A stretch of 39,258 nt of DNA from Deltaproteobacteria bacterium (GCA_032128375.1 JAQBGU010000003.1:1-39258), one strand, 5' to 3'; positions 6,885-37,501 are shown, numbered from the stretch's first letter. Notes: generated by a model not told the origin, from the sequence alone. A program made the numbers and translations.

Positions 6885-8210
6885 TTATGGCGCCGAAGTG
6901 CCGAAAGCTGGGACCGGTGGGCCTCCCAGCGGGCGCTTCTGCCCCCGCACGGTGGCCAGCACATAGGGGCCTTGCGGAATGACTGCAATTCGACCGTGCT
7001 CGCCGATGTGCGCCAACCCGCGTGCGACCCCGTCAGCTGGCGAACGCACAGCCTCAACCAACAGCTCCGCGGCCGCTTCAAAGGGCAAGCCATCGGTGTA
7101 CAACAGTACCCTGGCACGCCGACGAGCCTGACACAGGTGCTGAACCATCCACTGGTCGACCACGAAGAACTGGTCGTCGAGGAGTTTGGCTTCGAAATCT
7201 TCTGGGCTCTCCGTTTCGCGGATCAGCTTTTCGAATGACGGGCTACCGATTCCCTCCGACAAGGACGCGCAAAGCAGAATCACACCGCCAGGTCGAACGA
7301 TCGAAGAAGCCGCACTGATACCTTTGATGGCCTGATAGAAGCTCGCGTCGAGCGGGTGTCCGCCTCCGGATGCAATGACGAAATCCGCGTAATCGTCGAG
7401 CGCAACGTGCGATTCGGTCTCGACGAATTCGATTCCGGTGCTGTGGGCGGTCTCGGGATGTCCACAGAACACAGCGGCGACCCGCCGATCCCGATCGAGC
7501 GCGACGTTGACCAGGAAGTCGACACCGACTTTGCGCAGCACCTGCATGAGACCCTTGTGCAGCGGGTTGCCCGTGATGATGCCCGGTCCGATCTGGCGTT
7601 CGAGCATCGCGGGTCCATGGGCGACCCGAATCGTCTCGACCGCCGCAAGCCCCGGGCAGACGGCCTTGCGCCCGCCCGAGTAGCCGGCCATCAGATGCGG
7701 TTCGATCAGCCCGGTGATGATACGTAGGTCGCTGTCCAGGAAGAACCGGTCGATCAGAATCGGAATGCCGCCCGCGGTTTTTCCGAGATCTCTGTGAGAG
7801 TCGAGGTCGCGGGCATCGTGTTGAACGATTCGAATGCTGCGCGCGATCTCGGTGCCGAGCATCTCGTCGAGTTCGCCGGGCGTGCACGCGCGATGCAGCC
7901 CGGTCGCGACCTGGATCGTGACGGCCTCGGCTGGCAGGCCTCCCTGGTCGAGCGCATCGAGAACGGGTGGTATCAGCAGTGCGTTGGGGACTGGGCGGGT
8001 CCGATCGGAGATGACGATGACCGCGTCCTTTCGGCCCCTCGCCAATTCCCGCAGCGGAGGCGCGTCAATCGGCCGCTCGATTCCGATGCGCAGCGCTTCT
8101 TCCGGCGACTCCATTGGGGCTACGGATTTTTTCTCGACACGCTCGATGATCCGGTCGTCTGGGAGCGAAAGCGAGAGGGCGGTTCGACCGTAATCGAGTT
8201 CGATGTCCAC
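6885..8210 (-). CDS. larA: Nickel-pincer-dependent lactate racemase LarA family
   Basis: Start GTG 8210 (VDIELDYG). Motifs SDRTRP, ATGLHR, EPHLMAGYSGGRK and FYQAIKG. Confidence 0.88.
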   Translation of the reverse strand: MDIELDYGRTALSLSLPDDRIIERVEKKSVAPMESPEEALRIGIERPIDAPPLRELARGRKDAVIVISDRTRPVPNALLIPPVLDALDQGGLPAEAVTIQVATGLHRACTPGELDEMLGTEIARSIRIVQHDARDLDSHRDLGKTAGGIPILIDRFFLDSDLRIITGLIEPHLMAGYSGGRKAVCPGLAAVETIRVAHGPAMLERQIGPGIITGNPLHKGLMQVLRKVGVDFLVNVALDRDRRVAAVFCGHPETAHSTGIEFVETESHVALDDYADFVIASGGGHPLDASFYQAIKGISAASSIVRPGGVILLCASLSEGIGSPSFEKLIRETESPEDFEAKLLDDQFFVVDQWMVQHLCQARRRARVLLYTDGLPFEAAAELLVEAVRSPADGVARGLAHIGEHGRIAVIPQGPYVLATVRGQKRPLGGPPVPAFGTSAP

Positions 8211-8312
8211 AGCCCTAACGTATCCTGACAGCACGCACGATGCCAAGCTCCGTGGTACCGTCGAGCCCTTCGAGGGGGACCAAGAGACGTGCGAGGGTGT
8301 AGCAACCCGATC

Positions 8313-8390
8313 AGAGCGGGCGGATGAGAGCGGGCGGATGAGAGTGGGCGGATGAGGGTGGGCGGATGAGTGTGCACGGATGAGAGTGCG
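8313..8390 (+). repeat. 14-bp tandem repeat (agagYgggcggatg) x5 ending at the amidase start codon
   Basis: Units start at 8313, 8327, 8341, 8355 and 8369, plus a partial unit at 8383. Confidence 0.9.
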
Positions 8391-9168
8391 GGAAGCGCTG
8401 GGTGTGGGTGTCGTTTGTTTGGCCGCAGCCGGCCTGCCAACGTCGAAGTCATGGCCGAAGGAGAGTCCGTCACCGAATCTCTTTGACATAGTCGTGATCG
8501 ACGCCGGACACGGCGGGGAGGACAAGGGCGCTCGCAGTTCAGCGGGACTGCTCGAAAAAGACCTGGTTCTCGATATTGCGAACCGAGTTGCCGAGAGCTT
8601 GCGCATGAGCGGGCTCAGCGTCGTGATGACGCGCAAAGACGACCGATTCATCGCGCTGGAAGAGCGAACTTCGATCGCCAACGACGCTCGGGGAGACCTG
8701 TTCGTGTCGATCCACGCGAACGCCACACCCGATCCGAAAATTCGCGGAATCGAGACGTTCTTCCTGGCTCTCGACGCCAGCGATGACTCCGCGTCAGCCG
8801 TAGCGACGCGAGAGAACCGGTCGTTCGGCGGCAGATCACGAAAACCGAGCGACGATGCGTTCATGGCGATGATCGGAGACCTGATCGTCACCGAGCACAT
8901 GGAGGAATCCAACGAGTTCGCGCGGCTCGCGCAGGCCGAACTCGCGATCGGATCAGCGGCCCGAGGTGTCAAGCAGGCTCCGTTCGTGGTACTCGAAGGG
9001 GTGCAGATGCCCTCTTCGCTGGTCGAGATCGGTTTCTTGACCAACCCTCAGGACGAGAAACTCTTGAGCGGCTCGCAGGGCAGGGATCGGATCGTCGCAG
9101 CGTTGGTTCGGGCAACTCTGGAATTCGGGCGTCGTTATGACGTTCGGCGTGGCGGCGGTAAACGCTAG
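8380..9168 (+). CDS. N-acetylmuramoyl-L-alanine amidase (Amidase_3)
   Basis: IDAGHGG, EKD, SIHAN and LVEIGFLTN motifs; N-terminal signal peptide. Confidence 0.93.
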   Translation: MRVREALGVGVVCLAAAGLPTSKSWPKESPSPNLFDIVVIDAGHGGEDKGARSSAGLLEKDLVLDIANRVAESLRMSGLSVVMTRKDDRFIALEERTSIANDARGDLFVSIHANATPDPKIRGIETFFLALDASDDSASAVATRENRSFGGRSRKPSDDAFMAMIGDLIVTEHMEESNEFARLAQAELAIGSAARGVKQAPFVVLEGVQMPSSLVEIGFLTNPQDEKLLSGSQGRDRIVAALVRATLEFGRRYDVRRGGGKR

Positions 9169-13999: not shown

Positions 14000-14686
14000 T
14001 TGATGGATTTTCTACAATGGCTCTGGTACGACGCGCTGCTGCGCGACGTGGTTGTGCTCGGCACCTATCTCGTGGCCGGAGGGTTGCTCGGCGTCTACGT
14101 GCGCACGCTGTATCGACGCTTTGCCGGTACCGTGTCGAATCGCGACAGCTTCAGCCGCTCGTTTCCACTGCTGACGCTGTCGACCATCCTGGTGATCTTC
14201 GTTGTGAAGTCCTCGTTGGCGCTTTCGCTGGGCTTGGTGGGCGCGCTGTCGATCGTGCGGTTTCGAGCGGCCATCAAGGAGCCCGAGGAACTCGTTTACC
14301 TGTTTTTCTGCATCGCGACCGGCCTCGCGATCGGGGCCGAATACTTCGCAGTGGCCGCGATGGGCACCGTCGTATTCACGGCCTTCGTTGTAGGCTCGCA
14401 CCGAGCCCGCGCTCGGCTCGCCGGCGGAGGCGACCAGTCGCTACTGCTTACGATCTCAGGCGAGCTCGCCGACATCGGCGCCGACTCGCAGCAGGTGATG
14501 CATCTGCTAGGTGAGGTGGCAGGCCCGTTCTCATTGCAGCGCTTCGACGTAGATGGAGGCCACGTCCAGTTGCGCGCGGTCATCGAGCCTCGCGGAGCGG
14601 ACGAGGTCGGTCCGATGTTGACGGCGCTGAGCGATCGCCTTCCGGCGTGCCGGATCTCGTACGTCAACCTCGAGAGCCTGCTCTGA
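14000..14686 (+). CDS. DUF4956 membrane protein
   Basis: Signature SSLALSLGLVGALSIVRFRAAIKEPEE; GAGGAG RBS. Confidence 0.88.
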   Translation: MMDFLQWLWYDALLRDVVVLGTYLVAGGLLGVYVRTLYRRFAGTVSNRDSFSRSFPLLTLSTILVIFVVKSSLALSLGLVGALSIVRFRAAIKEPEELVYLFFCIATGLAIGAEYFAVAAMGTVVFTAFVVGSHRARARLAGGGDQSLLLTISGELADIGADSQQVMHLLGEVAGPFSLQRFDVDGGHVQLRAVIEPRGADEVGPMLTALSDRLPACRISYVNLESLL

Positions 14687-14715
14687 GTCCGCGAGGCGCA
14701 AACGAAGTGAGTGCG

Positions 14716-15495
14716 ATGCAAACCCCGGGATCGAACGCAGTGCTCCGTCCGGCCGACTCGGGCGTCGGCTCGGCTTCCAGTGCGCCCGATGAAGTGACTG
14801 CGCAGCGCCGCGAGATGAAATTCGTTTTCGATGGCAGCCGCGTCGATGCGCTTCGCGATGTGCTCGAAGTAAACGCGCGCCGTATCGCCTTCGGCGACGG
14901 CCCGGTATCGCGGGTAAACAGCATCTACTTCGACGATCATCGGCTCAGCTCGGCCGCAGAGTCGCTGGCGGGTGTCTCGCGGCGCGTGAAGCTGCGGCTG
15001 CGCTGGTACGACGAGTCTTTCGCTCGCCGCGGACTGTTCTTCGAGGTGAAGCGCAGATCTGGACAGGTCATTTCGAAGGACCGCACGCCGTTGGAAGCGA
15101 CCGATGCGATCGATCGGATCCCCTACGACCAGCTCACAGCTTGGCTCAGCGAGGTGCTTGATCCGGAGACCGCCGCACGCTTGAACCTGCGCCCGATCCC
15201 GACCGCGCTCGTTTCATATCAGCGCGAGCACTTCCGCGATCGCGATTCGCCCATTCGACTCACCCTGGACTACCGGATCGAGGGCTTCAGCCAGCTGGGC
15301 CTGCAGCGGCCCGCCCGCCGGGCTGGCGTCGCGCTCGATCGCCTCGCGGTCGTCGAGGTGAAGACGCTTGCCGCGGACGAGCATCAAGTACGGCGTCTGC
15401 TGTTTCCGCTGAAGCCCCGGCTCGCGCGCTGCTCGAAATACGTGCACTGTTGTCTGGCCGATGGCCTGGGCGCTGCACTGCGCGCTACCGATTGA
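14716..15495 (+). CDS. VTC-domain polyphosphate polymerase-like protein (CYTH/TTM fold)
   Basis: RREMKF, SIYFD, KLRLRWY, FEVKRR, YQRE, RLTLD, VEVK and SKY motifs. Start is GTG 14707 or ATG 14716. Confidence 0.88.
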   Translation: MQTPGSNAVLRPADSGVGSASSAPDEVTAQRREMKFVFDGSRVDALRDVLEVNARRIAFGDGPVSRVNSIYFDDHRLSSAAESLAGVSRRVKLRLRWYDESFARRGLFFEVKRRSGQVISKDRTPLEATDAIDRIPYDQLTAWLSEVLDPETAARLNLRPIPTALVSYQREHFRDRDSPIRLTLDYRIEGFSQLGLQRPARRAGVALDRLAVVEVKTLAADEHQVRRLLFPLKPRLARCSKYVHCCLADGLGAALRATD

Positions 15496-15507
15496 GCGTG
15501 GCGCGCG

Positions 15508-16857
15508 GTGGGTGACCTTCGGCTCTACGGACCGTGGTTGGGCGGGTCCCTGTTGGTGCTCGCCGTGGTGGTGACGGGCTCGGTCATCACCGACCCGGTG
15601 CCGCCGCGCGAGCGCGGTCTGCCAGATCAACTCTTCGTCGCAGATGCGAAGCTGCGTCGGACACTGCGTTCCTTCGACCCGAGCGGTTTCGAGGACAAGC
15701 CTGTCGCTGTTGGCGGCGCGGGGATGTCGCTGAATCTGGAACTCGATCCCGACGAATTGTTGCTGCGCTTCGATAAGCGCAACCGCACTCGGCTCAAGCT
15801 GCGACGTACGGACGCATTCATCCAGTTTGGCGATGGAGGATACCTTCCAGCGACTGCGCGGTTGCGCGGCGCGACGACGCTGCGCAATGGCGACAAGCTG
15901 AATTTCGTGGTCGACTTGATCCGCGCGCAGCTGTTCGCCAGTGGGGTCGCCATGAAGAGGCTCCTCTTGATGGCAATGATTCACGATCCACACCAGATCG
16001 TGTCGTTGTTCGGTTACCGGATTTTCGCCGACCTCGGCTTGTATCCTACTGACGTGCAGTACGCGCGCCTGTCCCTGAACGGTGAGCCTCAGGGCATGTA
16101 CCTGCTGGTCGAGCCGCCCCTTGGGGGACTGCGCCGCCTGTATCCCGACCTCGTCGCACTGTACCGGAGGAAGGCGCTCGGGTTCTACAGCATCGCGTGG
16201 CAGAAGAAAGTTCCCGGTGTCGAAGCATCCATCACCGGCTTGCGCGAAATTCGGCGCCAGACGCAACTCGATGACCCGCTTGCGCAATACTCCGAACACA
16301 TCGATCTCGACGCGTATTTCCGCTACCTCGCGGCCAACACCATCTTGTTGAACGAGGACATGCAGGCGGAGCTGTTCTTCTACGAGCGCCGCGCCGACGT
16401 GTCGCATCCCGATCCCCTTCGGCTGATGGCCTGGGATCTCGAGGACATCGGATCCGCCGAGGGGAAGCCGGACGCAGTGGCGGACCCGCTGATCTTCTCC
16501 GGCCGCGACCGCATGGACTTTCACGCCCACGAGCAGCCTCGCCTGCGCGCCCGCTATCGGGAAGTGCTCGCAGAGTTACTTCACGAGGTGCTCACGCCCG
16601 AGTACATTTCGTCGCTGCTGCACACGGTTCGCATGCTGCGAGATGGTCTGGACGACGGTCTGCCCGAGTCGGTGCAGGCAGAGGCACGGCGCGCGCGGGC
16701 AACGTACGCCGCAGAACTGGAGGAACGTCTGCTCGCGCGTCACGCCGAGTTGGTAGGGTTGCTGGCATCGGCCACGGAGTCCGGCCGGCAAATCCCCGGC
16801 AGGCGTCCGGGCCACCCGATGGGTGCCCAACAGCTGGCCGCGGCTCGAACGGAGTAG
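15508..16857 (+). CDS. CotH-family kinase, membrane-anchored
   Basis: N-terminal TM; RLRGATT, LSLNGEPQGMYLLVE, IDLDAYFRY, N.D and WDLE motifs; adjacent to VTC and DUF4956. Confidence 0.78.
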   Translation: MGDLRLYGPWLGGSLLVLAVVVTGSVITDPVPPRERGLPDQLFVADAKLRRTLRSFDPSGFEDKPVAVGGAGMSLNLELDPDELLLRFDKRNRTRLKLRRTDAFIQFGDGGYLPATARLRGATTLRNGDKLNFVVDLIRAQLFASGVAMKRLLLMAMIHDPHQIVSLFGYRIFADLGLYPTDVQYARLSLNGEPQGMYLLVEPPLGGLRRLYPDLVALYRRKALGFYSIAWQKKVPGVEASITGLREIRRQTQLDDPLAQYSEHIDLDAYFRYLAANTILLNEDMQAELFFYERRADVSHPDPLRLMAWDLEDIGSAEGKPDAVADPLIFSGRDRMDFHAHEQPRLRARYREVLAELLHEVLTPEYISSLLHTVRMLRDGLDDGLPESVQAEARRARATYAAELEERLLARHAELVGLLASATESGRQIPGRRPGHPMGAQQLAAARTE

Positions 16858-21479: not shown

Positions 21480-23165
21480 CTACGCAGATGCCTCGACGGC
21501 ACGATCGCCTGGCGCTGAGGTAACGAGCATCCGGAGCCCTTCGAACATGACCCAGATGTCGAGCGCCAGAATCAGCGCTCCAGTCGCCGCGAGCAGCCAT
21601 TGGTCTGCGAAATTCGCGAAGTAGCCTTGTAGTTCACCGAGCATCGCGATGATGGTCGCCACACCGACAAACAGCATGGGCACCACGGTGTAAACGATGG
21701 GCCGCCCGAGTTTTCGCAGCCAGACCGACACGATGAGTAGCGTCACCGAGGCGACCAGCTGGTTGGTCGTCCCGAACAGCGGCCACAGAATCAAGCCGCC
21801 TTGGCCGCCCGCCTGGGTGACAGCGAGCAGCAGCGCTGCGCTGATACCCGCAATGCCCGCAACAAAGCGATTCTGCAGCGCGCGCACCCCATAGCTCTCG
21901 GCGAGTTCCGCGATGATGAGCCGTTGGATGCGTGCGCCGGTGTCGAGCGACGTCGCCGCGAATGCGATCACCATGACGGCGATGAAGGTCTTGGCAGATT
22001 CGACCGGAATCCCGAGCGCCGCCACGAAGTTCCCACCACCTGAGACGAACGCATCGAGTTTGGCGCCGAGTCCCGACGCCGCACCCCAACTCGCGTAGTG
22101 GCTCGACCACTCTGTCTCGCTCGCGAAACCGGCCGTCGCGGCCAGCACCGCGAGCAACCCGAGTGAGCCTTCGCCGAGCATGCCGCCGTAGCCGATCGCG
22201 CGCGCGTCCGTCATGCACGAGACCTGCTTGGATGTCGTTCCCGAAGACACGAGCCCGTGAAACCCCGAGATAGCGCCACACGCGATCGTGATGAACAGAA
22301 ACGGGATCATCGGTGGCGCGCCTTCCGGTGACGGGTTGATGGCCGGTGCCTGGATGGTCGGATGCAACACCAACAGTCCCAGACTCAGAAGGCCGAGGCC
22401 CGTGATCAGTTGGTGAGAGTTCAAGTAGTCGCGAGGTTGCAGCAACATCCAGACGGGCAGCACCGACGCCACCAACGAGTAGGTCAGTAGGATCCAGACC
22501 CAGGCCGTGACGGAGATATCGCCGATCGCGGGAAACGCGCTGGCGAAGCTGTTGCCGTACAAGATGGCCGCAAGGAGCAGCGCGTAGCCGATCAGCGACG
22601 GCCAAAGGATCGGGACTCCCCGCCGGTGCACGAGCCAACCCAATCCCATCGCGACGATGATCTGCACGTTGATCGGGAAGATCGCGCCCGGATTGCCGAC
22701 GAAGAGTGTTCCGATGATGAACGCAAACACCGCCAACACGATCCAGATCAGAATCGAGATGATCACCAGGAACGCAGTTCGCGCGCTCGGGCTCACGACG
22801 CTGCCGGCGATCTGGCCTATCGATCCGCCGCGGTGTCGCAAGCTGATGACCAGCGCCGAGAAGTCGTGGACCGCTCCCATGAAGATGGTACCCACCACGA
22901 CCCAGATCAGCGCCGGCAACCAACCCCAGATGACGGCGATCGCCGGGCCGACGATGGGCGCGGCTCCGGCGATCGACGTGAAATGGTGGCCCCACAGCAC
23001 GTGCTTCGGGGTGGGCACGAAGTCGACACCGTCTTCGAACTCGCGGGCTGGGACCGGCTCGCCATCGGTCAACTGGAACAGCGAGCGGGTCAAGAACGCG
23101 GCATAGAACCGATAGCCGAGCGCGAATGCCGCGAACGCGATCGCTGCGAGGACGGCGGCATTCAT
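21480..23165 (-). CDS. cstA: Carbon starvation protein A family transporter
   Basis: DGVDFVPT, GHHFTSIAGAAPIVGP, LLQPRDYLN, IACGAISGFH and WPLFGTTNQL. Confidence 0.95.
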   Translation of the reverse strand: MNAAVLAAIAFAAFALGYRFYAAFLTRSLFQLTDGEPVPAREFEDGVDFVPTPKHVLWGHHFTSIAGAAPIVGPAIAVIWGWLPALIWVVVGTIFMGAVHDFSALVISLRHRGGSIGQIAGSVVSPSARTAFLVIISILIWIVLAVFAFIIGTLFVGNPGAIFPINVQIIVAMGLGWLVHRRGVPILWPSLIGYALLLAAILYGNSFASAFPAIGDISVTAWVWILLTYSLVASVLPVWMLLQPRDYLNSHQLITGLGLLSLGLLVLHPTIQAPAINPSPEGAPPMIPFLFITIACGAISGFHGLVSSGTTSKQVSCMTDARAIGYGGMLGEGSLGLLAVLAATAGFASETEWSSHYASWGAASGLGAKLDAFVSGGGNFVAALGIPVESAKTFIAVMVIAFAATSLDTGARIQRLIIAELAESYGVRALQNRFVAGIAGISAALLLAVTQAGGQGGLILWPLFGTTNQLVASVTLLIVSVWLRKLGRPIVYTVVPMLFVGVATIIAMLGELQGYFANFADQWLLAATGALILALDIWVMFEGLRMLVTSAPGDRAVEASA

Positions 23166-25039: not shown

Positions 25040-27427
25040 TCAACCGCTCGCGGGCAAGGCTACCATGGAAACGCGGTTCACACGGCTCGGTTGACGCTCG
25101 GGTGGTCGCTCCGGCTCCACCGAGGAGCCGCCGACCGAATCCGCGAAGTCGATGTAGATCGGCGATGACCAGGCCCGTTCGCGGGCTTCGCTCAGACAGT
25201 CGTCGTCTCGATCCGTTTCGAAATTCTGATGGCACGCGTCGACCGCAATGCACTCGCCTTGCTGGTCGAGCGTGCAACGCAGCCCCCCGGCGTTGATGAT
25301 CTGGCTGGGCTCCTCGAGCACGCGCACGTAGTAGACCGAGTCGCGCGCGAAACTTTTGTCGTCGAATTCGACCACGCAGCCGGACGGATCGCGCGGACAA
25401 TCGAAGCTGCGCCACGGGTCCTCGATCAAGGAGGCCACCGGTTCGTTCGGCGTCTGCTGTGGGCGAATCCGGACGACCTCGACCCGGTCGATCCGGCGCC
25501 GATTCTCGCCTGGGAAATCACACTCGTCTGCGCACAACGCGCCGATGCGATCGGGGCCCAATGCGTACAACGCGTAATCCGGACAGCCGGGGCGTTGTAC
25601 CAGAGAGCCCGCTGCGCGCACTCGGAACCGCGGGGTGTCGATCATGGCCAGTTCGGAACCCATCGGCGCGCTGTGATCGGCGTTCACCCCGTGTGGAGTG
25701 GGCGGGTTGATCAGGTCGAACCAGAGCAGAATTTTCGTGCCGCTGGTCGCGTAGACCTCGCGACGTTTCAGCCCATCCCAAATCGAGCGTCGGTCGCGGC
25801 CACTGGTATGGACTGCGGTGAGCCCGCCAGCGCTGAGGAACGAACTGGTGCGCTCGATTTCGAAGCTTCCCAATCCACCGAAGCTGCCGGCTTCGAGGGG
25901 TTGGCTGGCAATCCGGTCGCCTCCGCGTCCAAGCACCGTGTCGAGCGCTGCGGGCGTCTCGAACTTCAGCCCGTCGACGAAGAAATTTCGGTTGAGCTGC
26001 TTGTAGCCGATGCCGGGTTTCGCCTGGTGGCCATCGCTCGCGGCGACGAAGCCGAAGCGTGTGCGCTTGGGTCGCGTATCTAGTTCGGCCGCGCGGGTCT
26101 CGTTCGCATCGCCGGTCTTGTCGGCTGCGCGAAAGTGCGAGATCGCTGCCACGTACTGTACCGAATTGCCCGGCCGGTGATTGAATGCCGGCAAAAAACA
26201 GTCACGACACTGTCCGGAATCGAGCCAGTCGTCGGGACGTTGGCCCGGCACGACTTGGAACCCCCGAGTCCCGGTATCGACGTAGCGTTGGCGAGTCAGC
26301 ACCGCTCGCTGCTCGCAGACCTGCGCATTTCCGCCCGCCGCCGTGCAGCGCTCGCGCATGATCTCGCCGGCACGCCAACACGAGGGCAGGTAGTCGGGGC
26401 GCGGTGCGGGGCACTTCGGCGAACCGTCGGCTGCGGTCACGACGGACCGCCAATCGCGGTATTGCTCGGCGCTGCCGTGCCCCGAATAGACTTCGAACAG
26501 CGTTTGCAGCGCGGGGTCGTCCTGCTCGGTCCCCAGCTGTTTGTCCCAGCTCGAGCCGAGCGGCGTATAGAACCCCCAGCTGGTGCCATGCGGGATGACG
26601 ACCGAATCGCCTCCCCATTCGCGCAGCTTCCGAAACAGCACGGCCGGTGTCGGCGCGATTTCGCGACAATTTCCGGGCAATTCGCTGGTATGGACATCTT
26701 CCGCACAAACGGGCACTTCACTGCGGTCCTTCATGTAACGCGCGAAGTCGAAGTAGCGCTGAGGGGAACGCTCGAGATCGAGCAGCGCGAGGGCGCCGGG
26801 CCCGCTGGCGCCGCCGACCGCGAGCGCGATGGGTTCGGCGATCGGCCGCTTCGGAACGAGGTCGCTGGCCGTTTCCAACAGCACGATGTTCTTGTGGCCG
26901 TAGTGGCTGGCGGCCGTTTGACCGACCTGCGTCCATTCCCAGCCCAGGAACGAAACCAGGTCGGGTCGCTCCGGATCGCCGGAGCGCGCATTGCAATCTC
27001 GGATCGACTGCTGTGTTTCGTGCCAGTGTTCGGGGGTCAGGTTCGAGGCGTGATCATTGATCGACCAGAAGTCGAGCCCCGCGCAATAGCGCGCGAAATC
27101 GCAGGCATCGGCCGGCGGGTGTGCGCCGGTGCCGCCGAAGATCGGCAGGCTGGACGCGAACGCATCGGTCGAAAAAGTCGTGTGGACGTGCAGGTCGCCG
27201 AACAAGATCTGGCGCCCCCGCGGCACGCCCAGCGCAGCGGCGCGGGCACCGCGCGCAGCTTCGCGGCCGAATACGATGCCATTGGGAATGGCCTCGCCGC
27301 GAATCTCGCCGGGACCTTCGTGCTCACCGAGCAGGCCCCAGGAGATCTGGTACAGCATCCACAACGCGACGGCTGCGAACGCGACTGCTGCCAGCGCGAG
27401 TCGTTTCAACGCCAGCGCGGTAGCCAA
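25040..27427 (-). CDS. DUF3604 (PHP-like metallohydrolase), membrane-anchored/secreted
   Basis: FGDLHVHTTFSTDA, NDH, GWEWT, IPHG, SDGH, EVYATSG and ERAWSSPI. Confidence 0.85.
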   Translation of the reverse strand: MATALALKRLALAAVAFAAVALWMLYQISWGLLGEHEGPGEIRGEAIPNGIVFGREAARGARAAALGVPRGRQILFGDLHVHTTFSTDAFASSLPIFGGTGAHPPADACDFARYCAGLDFWSINDHASNLTPEHWHETQQSIRDCNARSGDPERPDLVSFLGWEWTQVGQTAASHYGHKNIVLLETASDLVPKRPIAEPIALAVGGASGPGALALLDLERSPQRYFDFARYMKDRSEVPVCAEDVHTSELPGNCREIAPTPAVLFRKLREWGGDSVVIPHGTSWGFYTPLGSSWDKQLGTEQDDPALQTLFEVYSGHGSAEQYRDWRSVVTAADGSPKCPAPRPDYLPSCWRAGEIMRERCTAAGGNAQVCEQRAVLTRQRYVDTGTRGFQVVPGQRPDDWLDSGQCRDCFLPAFNHRPGNSVQYVAAISHFRAADKTGDANETRAAELDTRPKRTRFGFVAASDGHQAKPGIGYKQLNRNFFVDGLKFETPAALDTVLGRGGDRIASQPLEAGSFGGLGSFEIERTSSFLSAGGLTAVHTSGRDRRSIWDGLKRREVYATSGTKILLWFDLINPPTPHGVNADHSAPMGSELAMIDTPRFRVRAAGSLVQRPGCPDYALYALGPDRIGALCADECDFPGENRRRIDRVEVVRIRPQQTPNEPVASLIEDPWRSFDCPRDPSGCVVEFDDKSFARDSVYYVRVLEEPSQIINAGGLRCTLDQQGECIAVDACHQNFETDRDDDCLSEARERAWSSPIYIDFADSVGGSSVEPERPPERQPSRVNRVSMVALPASG

Positions 27428-27909
27428 CGAGTCGCGAGGTGCGCGCCCGCCAGTGCGGACACGCCGCCCAAGGTGTCGAGAAGCACATCGGACGTCGCGC
27501 CCATCCGATCAGACGATTGGGCTTGTCGCCATTCGTCGACAGCGGCCACGGCCACCACGACCGCCACGCTCGAGAGCGCACTGCTCCATCTCGACCAGCC
27601 ATAGCTCAAGCGCCAGGCGCGAATACACAACAGGGCGAGGATCCCGTACTCGACGACGTGCGCTGCCTTGCGGATTGCGAACTGGACCGAACTGAGCCAG
27701 TCGGCGCTGGACTCGGGGAACAACCAGTGCAGTAGCGGGCCCAGCAAGCGCGAGGTCTCGCTGTTGGAAAAATGGTCGCCTCCAAGCGACTGAATCATTG
27801 TGATCCACAGCGCGACGCATAGCCACGCAACGCCGCGCGAGGTGGGGGGGGCCGCAGGGAGGGGCGCCGAAGATTTTCGCGCCTGTTGCGGCAATTCGAC
27901 GGACCCCAT
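27406..27909 (-). CDS. VanZ-family membrane protein
   Basis: IRKAAHVVEYGILA, DEWRQ...R.G and DV.LD motifs. Likely start ATG 27909. Confidence 0.82.
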   Translation of the reverse strand: MGSVELPQQARKSSAPLPAAPPTSRGVAWLCVALWITMIQSLGGDHFSNSETSRLLGPLLHWLFPESSADWLSSVQFAIRKAAHVVEYGILALLCIRAWRLSYGWSRWSSALSSVAVVVAVAAVDEWRQAQSSDRMGATSDVLLDTLGGVSALAGAHLATRWLPRWR

Positions 27910-27966
27910 CGCGGCGCAGCATAGCCGACGCCGATCGCCTCGATGGCGGGGTATCCTGTCGCGTTG

Positions 27967-30207
27967 ATGACACAGCTCTCCATCGGACTCGTCTACGACT
28001 TGCTCGGCTCTTACCCTCGGCAGCGGGCAGATCCTCCCGATGTCGATGCGGAATATGAGCCTGAGGAGACGGTTTGCGCACTCGAGGCCGCGATTCGATG
28101 GCTCGGCCACAAGCCGGTGCGAATCGGCAACCCGGATGCGCTGTTGGCCCGCATCGGCAAAGGCGATTTGCCCGCACTCGATGCTGCGCTGAACATTGCC
28201 GAAGGGCGCGGCGGACGGAACCGTGAGGCGTGGGCGCCGGTCCTGTTGGAGATGGCGGGCATTCCGACGCTCGGTTCCGATGCGCTGACTCTGTCGCTGA
28301 CGCTCGACAAGGCCTGGGCGTTGACGCTGGTCGCAGAGGCCGGCGTTCCGGTCCCAATGCGCTGCGTGCTCGAATCCTCGAACCAGGCAAAAAACGTTGT
28401 ACTACCGGGGCCGTTTCCGCTGTTTGTGAAACCGAGATGGGAAGGAACTGCCAAAGGCATCAGGCGGGCCTCGAAGGTCGCGGATCGCGACGAGCTGGCG
28501 CGTGAGGTCGGGCGTATTCGCGAAACCTACAACCAGCCTGCGCTGGTCGAAGAGTTTCTGCCGGGTGCCGAGTACACGGTAACCGTCGTTGGGAACGACC
28601 CACCGCGTGCGCTGCCGGTGATTCAGCGCGCGCTGGACGCGGCGACCGGAATCGGGATTCACGCGATCGACGCGGAAGCACCGCCCGAGGGATTCCGTGC
28701 GGTCGTGCCGGGCGAGCTGACTGCGACGCTCGAAGCCAGCCTTGCCGAGCTCGCGGTGCGCGCTTATTCAGCGCTGGATTGCGTGGACTTCGCGCGCGCT
28801 GACTTCAAGTTGGACCGCTGCGGTGAAGTGAGATTTCTCGAAATGAATCCGCTTCCGACCTTCGCACCCGACGGTACGTTCGGTGTCCTCGCCGAACTCG
28901 AGGGTCGCCCGCTCGAGGCACTGCTCGGCGAAGTCATTGCGGCGGCGCTGGTGCGTCTTGGACTTGAAGGGGAAGGATTTCACAGGGAAGGATTTGACGG
29001 GGAAGGATTTCACGAGAAAGGGTTTCACAGGGAAGGATTGCGCGGGAAGGGGTCGCGATGGGCAGGGCTTCGAGCTGAGCACGTCGCGGCGGACCCTGCG
29101 CCGGCAGCGGCTGCAATGAGTGCGGCCGGGACAGGCAGCGATGAACGCGACTGGGGTTGGCAGATGCGCAACCGCATCCGCACGGCGAACGATCTGGAGC
29201 GCTACGTCCGGACGACGCCCGATGAGCGGCACGCCATCGATGCGCTGGCCGACCGCTTCCATTTCGTGATCACGCCCTACTACGCATCGCTGATGGACCC
29301 GGACGACCCGGAATGCCCGATTCGCAAGCAAGTCGTGCCGCGCAGCGCGGAACTCGACGACCCGGTCGGGTGGGATCCACTCGATGAAGTCGAGCACTCG
29401 CCGGTCAAGAACGTGATTCGGGTCTACCCCGATCGCATTGCATTCTGTGTGAACAACGAATGCGCGCTGTACTGCCGCTTTTGCCTGCGCAAGCGCATGG
29501 TCGGCGAACCGGACTGGACGATGAAAAAGCGCGAGCTGAGCAGCGCGCTCGACTGGATCCGCAGAACACCGGAAATCCGCGATGTGTTGTTGACCGGCGG
29601 TGATCCGCTGGTGTTTTCGGACGACCGCCTCGAATGGTTGCTCAGCGAGCTGCGCGCGATTCCCCACGTCGAGATCATCCGGCTCGGCACGCGCTTGCCG
29701 GTCACGCTCCCCTACCGCGTAACAGATGAGTTGTGTCGCATGCTCGAACGCTTCCATCCGATCTGGGTCAACACCCACTTCAACCATCCCAAGGAACTCA
29801 CCGAACAGGCGGCAGAGGCCTGCGATCGCTTGACGCGAGCCGGTATCCCGGTCGGCAACCAGAGCGTGCTGATGCGCGGCATCAACGACAGCGTCGAGGT
29901 GATGAAGGAACTCTGCGAAGGACTCGTGCGATTGCGGGTCCGGCCGTATTACTGCTACCAGGCGCAGATGCTCGAGGGCACCGGCCATTTTCGCGTGCCG
30001 ATCGAACGCGGACTCGAGATCTTTCGCTCACTGCGCGGTCGTACCAGCGGTTTTGCGATCCCGCTGTTCGTGCTCGATACGCCGTACGGAAAGGTCCCTG
30101 TCACCTATCCTTACTATCGCGGCCGGGAGGGCGACGAGGTCGTCGTCGAGAGCTTCGACGGCAGAATCTGGCGCGAGCCCAACTCACTCGATGATGGCCC
30201 GTCGTGA
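27967..30207 (+). CDS. Fusion: D-Ala-D-Ala-ligase-like ATP-grasp domain + KamA-family (lysine 2,3-aminomutase-like) radical SAM domain
   Basis: One uninterrupted frame. N-half has NIAEG..GRNRE, GSD..TL.LTLDK, VKP.WEG.AKGI, EEFLPG.EYTV and FLEMNPLP. C-half has W.WQ..N.I, ITPYY, CALYCRFC, LTGGDPL, RLGTR.PV, THFNHPKE, NQSVL..GIND and PYGKVP. Confidence 0.88.
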   Translation: MTQLSIGLVYDLLGSYPRQRADPPDVDAEYEPEETVCALEAAIRWLGHKPVRIGNPDALLARIGKGDLPALDAALNIAEGRGGRNREAWAPVLLEMAGIPTLGSDALTLSLTLDKAWALTLVAEAGVPVPMRCVLESSNQAKNVVLPGPFPLFVKPRWEGTAKGIRRASKVADRDELAREVGRIRETYNQPALVEEFLPGAEYTVTVVGNDPPRALPVIQRALDAATGIGIHAIDAEAPPEGFRAVVPGELTATLEASLAELAVRAYSALDCVDFARADFKLDRCGEVRFLEMNPLPTFAPDGTFGVLAELEGRPLEALLGEVIAAALVRLGLEGEGFHREGFDGEGFHEKGFHREGLRGKGSRWAGLRAEHVAADPAPAAAAMSAAGTGSDERDWGWQMRNRIRTANDLERYVRTTPDERHAIDALADRFHFVITPYYASLMDPDDPECPIRKQVVPRSAELDDPVGWDPLDEVEHSPVKNVIRVYPDRIAFCVNNECALYCRFCLRKRMVGEPDWTMKKRELSSALDWIRRTPEIRDVLLTGGDPLVFSDDRLEWLLSELRAIPHVEIIRLGTRLPVTLPYRVTDELCRMLERFHPIWVNTHFNHPKELTEQAAEACDRLTRAGIPVGNQSVLMRGINDSVEVMKELCEGLVRLRVRPYYCYQAQMLEGTGHFRVPIERGLEIFRSLRGRTSGFAIPLFVLDTPYGKVPVTYPYYRGREGDEVVVESFDGRIWREPNSLDDGPS
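28966..29070 (+). repeat. In-frame 15-bp purine-rich repeat (xxEGF) x5-7 in the fusion linker
   Basis: gaaggggaaggattt cacagggaaggattt gacggggaaggattt cacgagaaagggttt cacagggaaggattg, then two degenerate units. Confidence 0.88.
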
Positions 30208-31760
30208 GCGATGCATCGGAGCAAGAGCGATCGACCGGTCTTGCCGCCGCCGCGGTGCTGCTGGCGCTCAGTGCGGCGCTGTCTCGGTTACTCGGCTTGG
30301 TTCGCGAGCGAGTCATCGCACACCAAATCGGTGCCACCCAGCAGGCCGACGCTTATGGCGCGGCGTTCCTGATCCCCGACATCCTGAACTATTTCCTGGC
30401 TGGGGGCGCGCTGGCAATCGCGTTCATTCCGCTTTACTCGAGCGTGCGTGCGCGGTCCGGCGACGCGGCCGCCGGGGCTTTGTTCGCCAGCGTATTCGGG
30501 ACGATGAGTGCTGGCGCTGTGGTTGCGACCGCGATCCTCTGGTGGCAGGCGGAGCCGTTGGTGGGGGTTTTCTTCGCAGGTTTCGACCCCGACACACAGC
30601 TGATGACGGTGCGGCTGGTGCGGATCCTGCTCCCCGCGCAGATCTTCTTCGTAGCAGGGGGGATCTTGCGCGCGGTCTTGATGGCACGAGGCCGGTTCGC
30701 GAGCCAGGCGCTCGGACCGCTGATCTACAACGTCGGGATCATCTTGGCGGGGGGCATGTGGGGATCCCGCTTTGGCGCCGAGGCGTTTGCATGGGGTGCA
30801 TTGGCGGGCGCGGCGGTGGGTCCATTCGCGATTCCGATGCTCGAGGTCTGGCGCGACCCAGAGCTGCGCCCGCGCGTTCGCATCGCGCCGCTCGACCCCA
30901 TGCTGCTGCGTTACTTGGCGATGGCTGCACCCATCATGCTCGGCGTCAGCCTACTCACGGTAGACGAGTGGTACGACAAGTATTTCGGCGCCGGCCTCGC
31001 GGAGGGAACGGTCGCATACCTCGGCTACGGACGCAGGTTGGCCCAGGTACCCGTGGGTGTGATCGGGCAGGCCGTTGCGACGGCGGCCCTTCCCACGCTG
31101 TCGCGGCTGTGGGCGGCCGGCGATCGCGAGCAGCTCGATCGGATCTTGTCGACGACGCTTCGCACTGGCTTGGGGCTCGGGGTTCTGTGTGCGGCCGGAT
31201 TGTTTGCGTTTGCGCACCCGGTCGTCGTAGTGATCATGGAGACGGGTCGATTCGGCGCCGCCGACAGTGACCGGGTAGCGGGGCTGGTGGCGATCTTTGC
31301 GGTAGCTGTCCCCGCGTGGATCGTGCAACAGATTGCGGTGCGCGCCTTCTATGCGCGAGGTCAGATGTGGTTCCCGATGTTTCTGGGGACCGGGATCGCG
31401 CTGGCGTTCATTCCGCTGTATGTGGTGCTCGGGACCGACGCTGAGGGGCTCGCTAGCGCAGGCGCGATCGGTATGACGACGAGTGCACTGGCCACGCTGG
31501 GGTTGGCGCGCGTGCGTCACGGTGGGCCGCCGCTCGAGCCGATCGCTTCGAGTGCTGCGAGATCACTGCTCATCGCGGGTGTTGCGGCGGCGGTCGGCGC
31601 ATGGGCGGGTGGATGGTTCGAAAGCGCACTGGCGACGCTGGCATCCGGTGGCGCGGTCTTCGCGCTGGTGTGCGCGCTCGGGGTGTGGTCGATCGGCGAC
31701 GGGCCGTTGCGCGAAGCATTGTTGCGAGCGGCAAAGCGCGTCACCGGGCGCTCCGGATGA
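30204..31760 (+). CDS. murJ: Lipid II flippase MurJ (MviN)
   Basis: [18 protein letters not shown]..., GAL..AFIP, RRL.Q.P.GV.G and RAFYA; GTGA overlap with the upstream fusion. Confidence 0.9.
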
Positions 31761-31767
31761 ACCCCCG

Positions 31768-34700
31768 ATGAGCTGGGAGTTCTGGATCGATCGGGGCGGG
31801 ACGTTTACGGACTGCATCGGGCGCGACCCCGATGGCGCTCTGCATGTGTGCAAGCTGCTGTCTTCGGACACGGCGCCGGTCGAGGGAATTCGCGCGATTT
31901 TGCGGAGGGCAGGCGTACTCGAACCGGACGCAGCGGTTGCTCCCTGCCGCGTGCGCCTGGGAACGACCGTGGCGACCAACGCGCTGCTGGAGCGGCGCGG
32001 GGCGCCTACGCTGCTCGTTGCGAGCGAGGGGCTCGGCGATGTGCTCGAGATCGGCACCCAACAGCGACCCGAGTTGTTCGCGCTCGCGATCGCGAAGCCG
32101 GCACCGCTACACCGCCAAGTGATCGAGGTCGCGGGTCGCGTCGACGTTGCCGGCGAGCGCCGAACGCCGTTCGACGCCGCTGCAACGCGGGAGGCGCTGG
32201 TTGGCGCGAAACGGGACGGCATCGATTCGGTCGCGGTGAATCTGATCCACGCATACGCGTTTGCGGACGACGAGATCGCGATTCGCAAAATTGCCGATGC
32301 ACTCGGCTTTGGTTACGTGAGTCTCTCGCATCAGGTGGCGCGTGAGATGGGGTTTTTGGCAAGAGGTGAGACAACATGTGTTGACGCCTACTTGACGCCA
32401 CTTTTGAGAATTCACGTGAAGGAATTGAGCGCAGCGCTGCCCGGCTCCGATCTGCGCTTCATGCAGTCTTCTGGCGGGCTGACCGACGCCGCACGCTTCA
32501 AGGGTCCCACAGCACTGCTTTCCGGGCCGGCCGGCGGGGTCGTGGGGGCGGCCAAGGTGGCGGCAGCCGCGGGTTTCGACCGCGCGATCGGCTTCGATAT
32601 GGGAGGGACGTCGACTGACGTTTCGCTGTTGCGCCGTGGCCAGCTCGAACGCTCGTTCGAAACACTGATCGGTGGCGTGCGGGTCAAGGCTCCGATGCTG
32701 CGTGTGCACACGGTGGCGGCCGGAGGCGGATCGCTGTGTCGCTTCGATGGAATCCGGTTGCTGGTGGGGCCACACAGCGCGTCGGCCCGGCCCGGTCCGC
32801 TGTGTTATGGCCAACCCGACGCGCGCGAACTGACGCTGACCGACTGCAACTTCGCGCTGGGACGGATCCAGCCCGATCGATTTCCGTTCCCGTTGGTTTC
32901 AGAGCCAGTCGAAGCGGCGCTATCGACGATGGTCGCGAAGTTGGCGGCTGAAGGTCACGAACTCGACCGCGATGCTGTGGCGGCCGGTTTTTTGGAAGTG
33001 GCCAATGCCTGTATGGCGGACGCGATCGCCGAGGTGTCCGTTGTTCGCGGCGTGGATCCGAGGGACTGCGCGCTGGTCGGGTTCGGCGGCGCGTCGGGCC
33101 AGCACGTGTGCGCGATCGCCCGGTCGCTCGGAATTCGCACCGTGCTGTTGCACCCCTTTGCCGGGATCTTGTCCGCGTACGGAATCGGCATGGCGGACGT
33201 GAGCTGGGATGGGCAGCGCGATGCGGGGCGCGTCTTGCTCGGTTCGATCGCCGCTGCTGCAACCACATCGCTTCCCGCATCCGTTGCCGATCGACTCGAC
33301 GAACTCGAGCGACAGGGCCGCGCCGCCATCGCCGCCGAGGCGCCGGACGCCGAAGCACCGCTCCGTATCGAACGGCTCCTCGATCTGCGCTACCGGGGTA
33401 CCGAGACGCCATTGAGTGTCGCGGAGCCCGACACCGGCAATTTCCAAGCGGCCTTCGAGGCCGATCACCAGACGCGTTTCGGCTACACGCGCCCGGGCCG
33501 ACCGGTGGAAATCGTGACGGCGCGAGTGAGGGTCACGGTCTCGCGAGAAGCCTCGAGCGGTTCCTCGAAAGAGCCCTCGAGCGGGTCCTCGAAAGAGCCG
33601 ACGAGCGGGTCCTCGAAAGAGCCCTCGAGCATCCCCTCGAAAGAGCCGTCGAGCATCCCCTCGAAAGAGCAGGTCGAGTCGCCTCGGAAACCAGACCCGT
33701 TCGCGGTTGTGCCGGAAGCGCTGCGCGTACAAAGGGTCTGGTTCCCAGGACTCGGCCGAATCGCCGTACCCGTGTACGACCGCAGCGCACTCGAGCCCGG
33801 CTGCGAATTTCGCGGGCCCGCCGTGGTGCTCGAAGACACTGGGACGTTGATTCTCGATCCGGGCTTCAGCGCCCATCTCGGCGCCGAACAGATTCTGGTT
33901 CTGACCGACGAAACCGGCGCTCGCCGCGCAGAAGTCATCGACTACTCGCGCGCTGACCCCATCCGGCTCGAGGTCTTCGGCAACCGGTTCATGTCGATCG
34001 CCGAACAGATGGGCGGCGTGCTGCGCAATACCTCCGTATCGACCAACATCAAAGAGCGACTCGACTATTCGTGTGCGGTGTTCGACGCGAGCGGTGGCCT
34101 GGTCGCCAACGCGCCACACATTCCTGTGCATCTCGGCGCGATGGCGGAGACCGTTCGCCATGTCCGATTGCGGTTTCCCGGACTGGGTCCCGGTGATGTC
34201 GTCGTCACCAACGATCCGGCGGCCGGTGGTTCGCACCTTCCCGACGTAACGGCCGTCACACCCGTCTTTGCAAAAGATTCCTTCGAGAATTCCTTTCCGG
34301 GTCATGACGACGGCTCGGCCCCGGACTCTGACAGCCACCCCGCGCCAGCCTTCTTCGTTGCGAGCCGCGGTCACCACGCCGATATCGGGGGAGTGACGCC
34401 GGGTTCGATGCCGCCGGATTCTCATTCATTGGAAGAAGAAGGCGTTGTGCTCGAAGCTTTTCTCGCGGTTCGCGCCGGGCGCTTCGACGAACAGCATCTG
34501 CGCGAGCGGCTGACGGGCGCGCGCTACCCGGCGCGAAATCCAGACGACAATCTGGCGGAGATCGAGGCGATGGTTGCCGCGAACCGCTGCGGAGAGCGGC
34601 TGCTCGAGGAGATGATGGCCGAGCACGGTCGCCCGGCGATCGAGATGACGATGGCGCAACTCCAGCGCGCTGCGGCGCAGAAGGTGGGCCGAGAAATTGG

Positions 34701-35637
34701 ACGCCTGCCCGACGGCCGCTTCGAGTTCGCCGACCAGATGGACGATGGCACACCGGTCTGCGTGGCGCTGACGATTGCTGGGCAGCGCATGCTGATCGAT
34801 TTCTCCGGCACCGGTGCGGCGAGCCGCGGCAACCTCAATGCGCCCGGCGCGGTCGTGCAGGCCGCAGTGATCTACGTTCTGCGCGCGCTGGTAGCAGAAC
34901 GTATCCCGCTCAACGGCGGCTGCTTGGAGCCGGTCGAGATTCGGATCCCACCAGGCTCGCTGCTCGACCCGCCGGCGGGTTCCGCGGTGGTAGGTGGCAA
35001 CGTCGAAACATCGCAACGCATCGTGGACGTACTGCTCGGAGCGCTTGGGCGGGTAGCGGCGAGCCAGGGAACCATGAACAACGTGGCGTTTGGCGACGAG
35101 ACTTTCGGCTATTACGAAACGATCGGAGGTGGGGCTGGCGCGGGCGACGGCTTTGCCGGCGCGTCGGGCGTCCACACCCACATGACCAATACCCGGATCA
35201 CCGACGCGGAAGTGCTGGAGGCCAGGCATCCGGTGCTGCTGCGCGAGTTCCGGCTGAGGCGCGGGTCGGGCGGAAACGGACACTGGCCGGGCGGAGACGG
35301 GTTGGTTCGCGAGTACGAATTCCGCGCGCCAGTCACTGTCTCGTTGCTGACCGAGCGGCGAACCACGCAACCCTACGGGCAGCGAGGGGGCGAGCCGGGA
35401 ATGTCGGGCCGTAACAGCGCGATTCGAACCGACGAAACGGTTACACCGCTTCCCGGCAAGGCACGGATTGAAATGGCGAGCGGCGAGCGCCTGCGAGTCG
35501 AGACGCCCGGAGGCGGCGGCTTCGGCGAAGTGGATCGGTCCCCAGCGGAGCGCGCAGGTTCGCAGGTGTCGACACGGACGGGTCGCCGCACTGCGCTCGG
35601 CGAGGGTTGCGAGACGCGACCGCGCTCCGTACTGTGA
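31768..35637 (+). CDS. ATP-dependent 5-oxoprolinase / hydantoinase A-B fusion
   Basis: [68 protein letters not shown] and TPGGGG. Start ATG 31768. Confidence 0.93.
33551..33670 (+). repeat. 24-bp in-frame repeat x5 ([16 protein letters not shown]) inside the oxoprolinase
   Basis: Units start at 33551, 33575, 33599, 33623 and 33647, all ending cctcgaaagagc. Confidence 0.92.
35607..35635 (+). promoter_or_regulatory. Putative sigma70 promoter for tRNA-Lys
   Basis: TTGCGA-N17-TACTGT ending 11 nt before the tRNA. Confidence 0.45.
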
Positions 35638-35646
35638 CGCGACGGT

Positions 35647-35722
35647 GGGCGCGTAGCTCAATTGGCAGAGCAAGAGACTCTTAATCTCTAGGTTGAAGGT
35701 TCGATTCCTTCCGCGCTCACCA
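35647..35722 (+). tRNA. tRNA-Lys (anticodon CTT)
   Basis: GGGCGCG/CGCGCTC acceptor stem, anticodon stem AGAGA/TCTCT with loop CTCTTAA, GGTTCGATTCC T-arm, encoded CCA; 76 nt. Confidence 0.96.
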
Positions 35723-35724
35723 CT

Positions 35725-35784
35725 GTAGTTCGGCGTAGTTCGGCGTAGTTCGGCGCAGTTCGGCGTAGGTCGGCGTAGGTCGGC
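35725..35784. repeat. 10-bp tandem repeat gtagttcggc x6 directly after tRNA-Lys
   Basis: Three copies of gtagttcggc, one gcagttcggc and two gtaggtcggc. Confidence 0.92.
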
Positions 35785-36080
35785 GCGTATTCGCGAGTCG
35801 ACGCCTGTTCGGTGGCTTTCTTGCGGCGCCGGCGGAGTGATCGCGGCGTGCGGCCGCGAGAACTCTCTGGTTCGAAATCGGCGGGGGCGGCGTCGACCAC
35901 TCGCCGTGCGAACCCGAATCGATCGGAACGTCCATCTCTGCTTGCATGCCAAAGGAAGGCGAATTGCAGTTGAACGAGTCGTACACCGCGCTCGATACTC
36001 TCGAATAGGTTTGCACTGTTCTGCGCCGAAGCGGTGGCGCGCATGTGCTTACGCTCGGTTTTTTGCGAAGATGATTCCGC

Positions 36081-37414: not shown

Positions 37415-37501
37415 GCCGGGGTGGCGGAACTGGTAGACGCGGTGGCCTTAGGAGCCACAGTCCGAAAGGTCGTGCAGGTTCGAGTCCTGTCCCCGGCACC
37501 A
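37415..37501 (+). tRNA. tRNA-Leu (anticodon TAG)
   Basis: GCCGGGG/CCCCGGC acceptor stem, GTGGC-CTTAGGA-GCCAC anticodon arm, long variable arm, GGTTCGAGTCC, CCA end. Confidence 0.96.

Follow-up and report, generated by a model that had tools for sequence, protein, structure and literature searches.

What does an enzyme make that joins a Ddl-fold ligase to a KamA-family aminomutase, and does the flippase gene murJ that directly follows it belong to the same pathway? These questions are raised by a 39,258-nt stretch of DNA from a Deltaproteobacteria bacterium (GCA_032128375.1, JAQBGU010000003.1:1-39258), referred to over its whole length as the window. Here a single open reading frame (ORF) encodes both enzymes and is followed on the same strand by murJ and by a gene of the hydantoinase/oxoprolinase family, while a VanZ-family gene is divergent from it. 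The original prediction was a non-canonical peptidoglycan-precursor pathway, in which a β-amino acid would be placed on lipid II or another lipid-linked glycan and exported by this MurJ. On balance, and with modest confidence, we favor a different answer: the fusion would be a self-contained aminomutase–ligase module that makes a β-aminoacyl amide and lies ahead of a housekeeping murJ block. The aminomutase carries an active-site signature of its own, the ligase has diverged together with it, and among the loci compared the link of this pair to murJ is confined to one Myxococcota order.

The string of genes reads as follows.

27406-27909, − strand: VanZ-family gene for a membrane protein (ATG at 27909, 167 aa; PF04892, NF037970)
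27943-30207, + strand: ligase–aminomutase fusion ORF (754 aa; PF07478 at aa 143-332, Radical_SAM at aa 505-653, LAM_C at aa 696-747)
27943-28977, + strand: ligase domain of the fusion, ATP-grasp type with Ddl fold (aa 1-345; possible alternative start: ATG at 27967)
28960-29050, + strand: in-frame 15/30-nt tandem repeat, the interdomain linker (EGFHR-like units; Tandem Repeats Finder)
29128-30207, + strand: KamA-family radical S-adenosylmethionine/pyridoxal phosphate (PLP) 2,3-aminomutase domain of the fusion (aa 396-754; Gln/Asp signature)
30204-31760, + strand: murJ (PF03023, TIGR01695; GTG start)
31768-35637, + strand: fused HyuA/HyuB hydantoinase/oxoprolinase-family gene (1289 aa; Hydant_A_N, Hydantoinase_A, Hydantoinase_B)
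35647-35722, + strand: tRNA-Lys(CTT) (Rfam RF00005, 72.9 bits, and ARAGORN), which marks the end of the string

Layout and catalytic cores of the fusion

All four protein genes and their junctions, as first described, were found in the sequence, and the domain calls and the tight co-directional string were borne out by profile matches and by the junctions as read. The GTG start of murJ (30204-30206) overlaps the TGA of the fusion (30205-30207) as GTGA. The murJ stop codon (31758-31760) and the oxoprolinase ATG (31768) are 7 nt apart. The divergent spacer between the VanZ gene and the fusion is 57 bp with the fusion ATG at 27967, in agreement with the earlier figure of about 57 bp, or 33 bp from the start at 27943. 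The tRNA-Lys gene, absent from the original prediction, starts 10 nt past the oxoprolinase stop. The G+C content of the window is 60-68%, and its closest relatives as judged by public proteins are Myxococcota metagenome-assembled genomes (MAGs).

The ligase half matched PF07478 (Dala_Dala_lig_C) with 86.6 bits, while no Dala_Dala_lig_N domain was found in it by Pfam. Its scores were below the cut-off of every Ddl and Van ligase model by a wide margin (NF002378, 104.9 against 243; TIGR01205, 89.7 against 245.65). The AlphaFold model of this half (predicted local distance difference test score 84; predicted template modeling score 0.83) had Ddl structures as its top Foldseek matches, with 327-388 aligned columns, template modeling scores of 0.62-0.71 and 18-25% identity. 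The three-domain fold and the aligned catalytic R/D/E/N residues are common to Ddl, VanA, VanG and the ligase of the window; alignment A1 shows no variation at R285, D287, E300 or N302. Nevertheless, the low identity and the missing N-terminal domain set the ligase apart from the Ddl and Van enzymes, as does the region of aa 239-255, which aligns with the omega-loop (the substrate-covering loop) of Ddl, is unlike it, and has low confidence in the model. A separate canonical ddl is present on contig C50, where PF07478 scored 229 bits compared with 90 bits for the fusion, and the ligase half was accordingly rejected as the housekeeping ddl. It is predicted to be a Ddl-fold amide ligase and not a Ddl.

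The source genome has no KamA-family gene besides the aminomutase half. This half exceeded the cut-off of the family model (TIGR00238, 334.9 bits against 199.2) and stayed below that of each equivalog model. Glutamate 2,3-aminomutase (Eam, TIGR04368) was the top-scoring of these (441.8 against 650), followed by AblA (441.5 against 525.4), arginine 2,3-aminomutase (TIGR04468, 416 against 600) and EpmB (234.7 against 369.3). Members of the arginine family were found neither in 301 Myxococcota genomes nor in the control genomes. Compared with lysine 2,3-aminomutase (LAM; KamA of Clostridium subterminale, PDB 2A5H), the match had 398 bits over residues 15-363. The cluster motif CxxxCxxC (CALYCRFC aligned to CSMYCRHC), Asp330, the PLP lysine (GK, LAM Lys337) and an Arg at the position of LAM Arg134 are kept. 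In contrast to the LAM enzyme, which is unfused and has a full C-terminal domain, the window enzyme has Gln at the position of Asp293 and a loop two residues shorter ahead of the PLP lysine, and it lacks most of the C-terminal domain, as LAM_C was matched at positions 3-58 of 127 only. Judged by these alignments, both halves of the fusion appear to have intact catalytic cores.

Fused forms also exist outside this assembly. Other metagenomes yielded 16 full-length fused homologues (50-85% identity), and the same-family genome G283 contains a match of 67% identity that covers residues 9-747 and is free of stops. In most relatives the ligase and the aminomutase are adjacent separate genes; they are fused in a few. 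Tandem Repeats Finder resolved the linker repeat as a period of 15 with 5.5 copies and a period of 30 with 3.1 copies. The locus is carried by runs X1-X3, three marine-sediment metagenomes from a single study and possibly its source; their Logan contigs end at 28995 and restart at 28970, none spanning the repeat, and its copy number therefore lacks independent confirmation. As the repeat period is a multiple of 3, an error in copy number would not break the frame of the fusion. In a related strain (run X4), the linker letters differ before 29073.

A third active-site signature and a co-diverging ligase

The positions equivalent to LAM Asp293 and Asp330 were read in 100 KamA matches from neighbouring loci: Asp/Asp stood in 54, Gln/Asp in 45 and His/Asp in one. 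In Bacillota, all 10 glutamate 2,3-aminomutases that scored above their cut-off had Lys/Asn at these positions. We take the two Asp residues of LAM to be the pair that holds the ε-ammonium group of lysine, a role checked indirectly by the Lys/Asn pair of the glutamate enzymes, and the two positions appear to track substrate. Gln/Asp is thus a third active-site signature beside the lysine (Asp/Asp) and glutamate (Lys/Asn) types, and is new here. The Gln type also differs in two motifs, with YQAQLLEGT and LDTPxGK compared with YQCD... and DAPGGK. Assignment of the window enzyme as a lysine 2,3-aminomutase equivalog was rejected by its AblA score and the change of Asp293 to Gln (Asp330 being kept), assignment as a glutamate 2,3-aminomutase by its Eam score and the Gln/Asp pair, and assignment as EpmB by its score and by the lack of efp linkage in 126 fetched loci. 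Since the signature matches neither the lysine nor the glutamate type, the substrate may be neither amino acid.

In a FastTree phylogeny of 100 aminomutases, the Gln-type enzymes with an adjacent ligase formed one clade of 43 rows. Of these rows, 29 (support 99) belong to the Myxococcota order of the window; the other 14, with 56-66% identity to the window, come from Rhodothermota, Balneolota and Bacteroidota. The Gln label changed twice on the tree, i.e. it had few origins. The ligase tree contained a corresponding clade of 48 rows (support 100), of which 43 are partnered by a Gln-type aminomutase, five are without a partner in the fetched stretch and none is partnered by an Asp-type enzyme. 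The ligase co-diverges with the aminomutase. The Gln/Asp clade includes the cultured strains Salinibacter altiplanensis AN15 and Roseithermus sacchariphilus MEBiC09517.

The surroundings of the pair in other phyla were compared at 14 loci by tblastn in the fetched flanks, with Pfam applied to the neighbors in six of them. MurJ, oxoprolinase and VanZ had no match in the flanks of the 14 loci. The Pfam neighbors in the six scanned loci were TrkH/TrkA, an NhaC-type antiporter, FadL and GDSL lipases, with no cell-wall genes among them. Ligase and aminomutase form a unit of their own. No description of the pair was found in the literature searched, with subscription journals mostly outside the coverage.

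In Rhodothermota (L100:12334-13734 and L102:12339-13859; also L101 and L103), the pair is followed by a conserved protein of 440-506 aa. It has hydrophobic N-terminal stretches and a long low-complexity middle, is membrane-anchored and has no Pfam match. Between Salinibacter and Rhodothermales the copies share 42% identity, and one copy used as query had no match in the source genome.

What the module does, and whether its product is soluble, we infer as follows. The C-terminal half would shift the α-amino group of an amino acid to the β carbon, and the N-terminal half would activate a carboxylate as acyl phosphate and form an amide between the β-amino acid and a partner. The expected product would be a soluble β-aminoacyl amide or dipeptide, and the fusion suggests that the β-amino acid may be handed over between the two active sites. 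The module is probably co-transcribed with the block behind it, comprising murJ, usually the 5-oxoprolinase, and then the tRNAs and trigger factor. Even so, murJ, the oxoprolinase gene and VanZ would not be steps in its pathway. The hosts (marine sediment, Salinibacter, Rhodothermales, Balneolales) and the ion-transport neighbors lead us to guess at a role in salt or stress.

A known parallel is AblA/AblB, the pathway for the osmolyte N-ε-acetyl-β-lysine, which like the window combines a KamA-family aminomutase with one amide-making modifier and occurs in saline hosts. PMC9337991 ties both ablA and eam to osmoprotection. The two systems differ in the partner, which is a GNAT in AblB and an ATP-grasp ligase in the window, and in the signature, which is Asp/Asp in AblA and Gln/Asp here, with the AblA cut-off unreached.

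A wider relative of the pair has an Asp-type aminomutase ahead of two Ddl-like ligases, of which the second is in many cases joined to a GNAT, and lacks murJ. This cassette was found in other Myxococcota, Chloroflexota, Planctomycetota, Cyanobacteriota and Bathyarchaeia. Its ‘ligase 1’, which adjoins the KamA-family gene, is homologous to the ligase of the window (34-42% identity), and fusions occur in it as well. In the window clade, by comparison, there is a single ligase, placed first, there is no GNAT, and the aminomutase is of the Gln/Asp type.

Seen against this cassette, the substrate could still be lysine, with the Gln as a neutral change and the module as a reduced form of the cassette that makes a β-lysine amide. 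We regard this as less likely. The retention of Asp330, the PLP lysine and the carboxylate-binding Arg, the AblA score level with that of the glutamate model, and the homology to ‘ligase 1’ all agree with it, and Gln may still be able to hydrogen-bond the ammonium group. On the other hand, the Gln type makes up one clade with few origins, both of its motifs differ from those of the Asp type, and both positions switch with the substrate in glutamate 2,3-aminomutase. Moreover, a review (PMC9850924) reports that LAM acquired alanine 2,3-aminomutase activity when one of its active-site Asp residues was changed.

The murJ block and its neighbors

The murJ of the window scored 225.8 bits with PF03023 and 237.1 bits with TIGR01695, barely over the cut-off of 235.55. 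It is the sole full-scoring copy of the source genome, with 226 bits compared with 52.6 for the next MurJ match. The same was found for five relatives, of which three have closed or nearly closed genomes: murJ scored 202-242 bits and the next match at most 75. The murJ of the operon is thus a housekeeping flippase and not a dedicated exporter. In four genomes of the order (2.2-3.9 Mb, 91-95% complete), a KamA-family match was found nowhere while murJ, oxoprolinase and trigger factor were intact; the block therefore does not need the module.

Aligned to 7waw, the MurJ of the window keeps the equivalents of R18, R24 and R270 and has Asn at the equivalent of R52. In Escherichia coli MurJ, these four residues are the conserved, essential cavity arginines. 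The surrounding motif in the order, at aa 58-69 (30375-30410), is PD(I/L)LN(Y/H)xLAGGA compared with the canonical PNLLRRxFAEGA (PNLLRRIFAEGA in the 7waw alignment). None of the 33 MurJs read from the order, among them the MurJs of the four module-less genomes, has Arg at the R52 equivalent, whereas three MurJs of another Myxococcota family have the canonical motif. The odd motif is order-wide and independent of the module.

Two other arrangements at murJ were observed. In G401 (L094:9500-16197), VanZ is divergent from a ligase followed by murJ and oxoprolinase, with the aminomutase cleanly missing and 88 bp between ligase and murJ; elsewhere that genome has a sub-threshold KamA-family match only (183.6 bits). 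In another Myxococcota family (L074, L076 and L083), NadA, an Asp-type aminomutase, a CBM9 protein, MazG and a canonical MurJ lie on one strand, with no ligase.

Several points weigh against an independent module that makes a soluble amide. The closest characterized relatives of its ligase, namely Ddl and the Van ligases, are all cell-wall enzymes. Ligase, aminomutase and murJ follow each other on one strand in all 20 genomes sampled from the order, which were drawn from the 54 of 63 other order genomes with a match at E ≤1e-130; these genomes are kin, and the 20 loci are not 20 independent events. The gap between aminomutase and murJ, as estimated from coordinates, is below about 130 bp in 17 of them; one further locus has about 300 bp, and the remaining two have 1.5-3 kb. 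The linkage is this tight although MurJ identity is only 44-57%; it looks like that of an operon and may stem from a true functional connection. The four genomes without the module may be secondary losses. Of the 20 loci, 13 have a VanZ homologue, which in 11 of them is divergent at a distance of no more than about 700 bp. Finally, in a Rokubacteria-labelled MAG (L085:8606-11546), a MurB-like gene is followed by a ligase 62% identical to that of the window and then a GNAT, with no aminomutase within 10 kb.

Together with the GTGA overlap, the odd cavity motif of MurJ and the canonical ddl elsewhere, which would leave a second ligase free to be specialized, the tight string, the divergent VanZ, the relatives of the ligase and the MurB-like neighbor agree with an order-specific module that alters a peptidoglycan precursor or a lipid-linked glycan. 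A β-amino acid would enter the MurF dipeptide or the stem, MurJ would flip the product, and VanZ would serve the same function. In a more particular form, the Gln/Asp aminomutase would make a product that is neither β-lysine nor β-glutamate, the ligase of the order would put it on a peptidoglycan precursor, and the diverged MurJ would flip it. If true, this would be a new lineage-specific cell-wall modification, with enzymes recruited from a soluble-metabolite module. Enterococcus faecium has a D-aspartate ligase and an aspartate racemase, the ligase acting on UDP-MurNAc-pentapeptide. As an amino-acid-converting enzyme paired with an ATP-grasp ligase, this is the best precedent for a role in the cell wall.

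Nevertheless, we consider alteration of the precursor unlikely and its more particular form slightly more doubtful still. There is no second or dedicated murJ, and the four genomes without the module keep theirs with the same odd motif. In other phyla, the pair stands without murJ at all 14 loci and without a cell-wall gene at the six scanned with Pfam. The Pfam-scanned genes of the window include no VanH, VanX, VanY or VanRS and no MurF or Fem-type gene. In addition, the synteny of the order extends to the unrelated trigger factor and AMP-ligase, and shared descent therefore explains part of the conserved linkage. The string of ligase, aminomutase and murJ is conserved in all 20 loci of the order, and murJ, oxoprolinase and VanZ had no match in the flanks of the 14 loci outside it. 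The original prediction was to fall if murJ was the sole copy and its link to the fusion was not conserved: the first holds, the second only outside the order. The predicted lipid II pathway, read as a dedicated one, is left mostly unsupported.

The VanZ-like protein itself was matched by PF04892 with 42 bits (cut-off 30.1; E 1.7e-10) and by NF037970 with 58.2 (cut-off 20). Given its distribution, it seems to be another neighbor within the lineage.

The oxoprolinase-like gene was matched by Hydant_A_N (168 bits), Hydantoinase_A (282) and Hydantoinase_B (632). Its closest solved structures are the fused N-methylhydantoinase 7hk5 (372 bits) and the caprolactamase 6yra, and the caprolactamase model NF050156 scored 321 against a cut-off of 1000. 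It follows murJ in 16 of the 20 loci of the order, in 13 of them close by as estimated from coordinates, and is missing from four, in three of which trigger factor follows murJ. PxpA had no match in the source genome (91% complete), which has one other HyuB gene only; this gene is therefore probably the ordinary 5-oxoprolinase of the cell.

A place for this enzyme in the pathway, where it would open or recycle a lactam of the β-amino acid or product, or supply glutamate from 5-oxoproline, is suggested by its start 7 nt past murJ, its frequent position downstream and the lactam-opening caprolactamase in its family. We find this improbable. The four module-less genomes have the gene in place beside murJ and trigger factor, four of the 20 loci that carry the module are without it, and at none of the 14 loci in other phyla is it near the module, while a genome without a PxpA match needs a housekeeping 5-oxoprolinase, for which this gene is the best candidate. 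The same judgment applies to the supply or recycling of substrate that had been proposed for it.

That the pair instead β-aminoacylates a protein (elongation factor P, EF-P, as with EpmA/EpmB, or a carrier, as with LysX/LysW) and not a free small molecule is very improbable: the aminomutase, like EpmB, is without most of the LAM C-terminal domain (a trait that PMC2821294 describes for YjeK), the EF-P of the source genome has Lys at its loop tip (KPGKGG) and two Rhodothermota ligases have a weak tubulin-tyrosine-ligase match, but the EpmB score is below its cut-off, efp is found in none of the 126 loci, the 33-57 bp between VanZ and the fusion are too short for a small carrier ORF, and the ligase is closest to free-amino-acid ligases.

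Remaining features and significance

The following features complete the picture of the locus.

33551-33686: 24-nt repeat in five copies, in frame, at the HyuA/HyuB boundary inside the oxoprolinase gene (Tandem Repeats Finder)
35725-35785: 10-nt repeat in six copies, directly past tRNA-Lys
37415-37501: tRNA-Leu(TAG), ahead of trigger factor

Short tandem repeats mark domain junctions at this locus, in the linker of the fusion and at the HyuA/HyuB boundary, and another lies past tRNA-Lys. Rfam searches over the whole window returned the two tRNAs only and no riboswitch. Between 27300 and 36200, promoter-like sites (one, compared with a shuffle mean of 1.1) and terminator-like sites (six, compared with 7.2) were not in excess. 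Among the data sets listed for 27400-32400, none was an RNA run. Elsewhere in the window, DUF4956, VTC-domain and CotH-kinase genes are consecutive at 14000-16857, a LarA-like gene lies at 6885-9044 and CstA at 21480-23165.

The tight linkage to murJ in one order is not in itself evidence for a cell-wall pathway, as the flippase is a housekeeping enzyme and the link vanishes elsewhere. If the fusion is the self-contained module that we favor, it would represent a conserved and sometimes fused two-enzyme route to an undescribed β-amino-acid amide, and its third signature would mean that KamA-family enzymes act on a broader set of substrates than is known.

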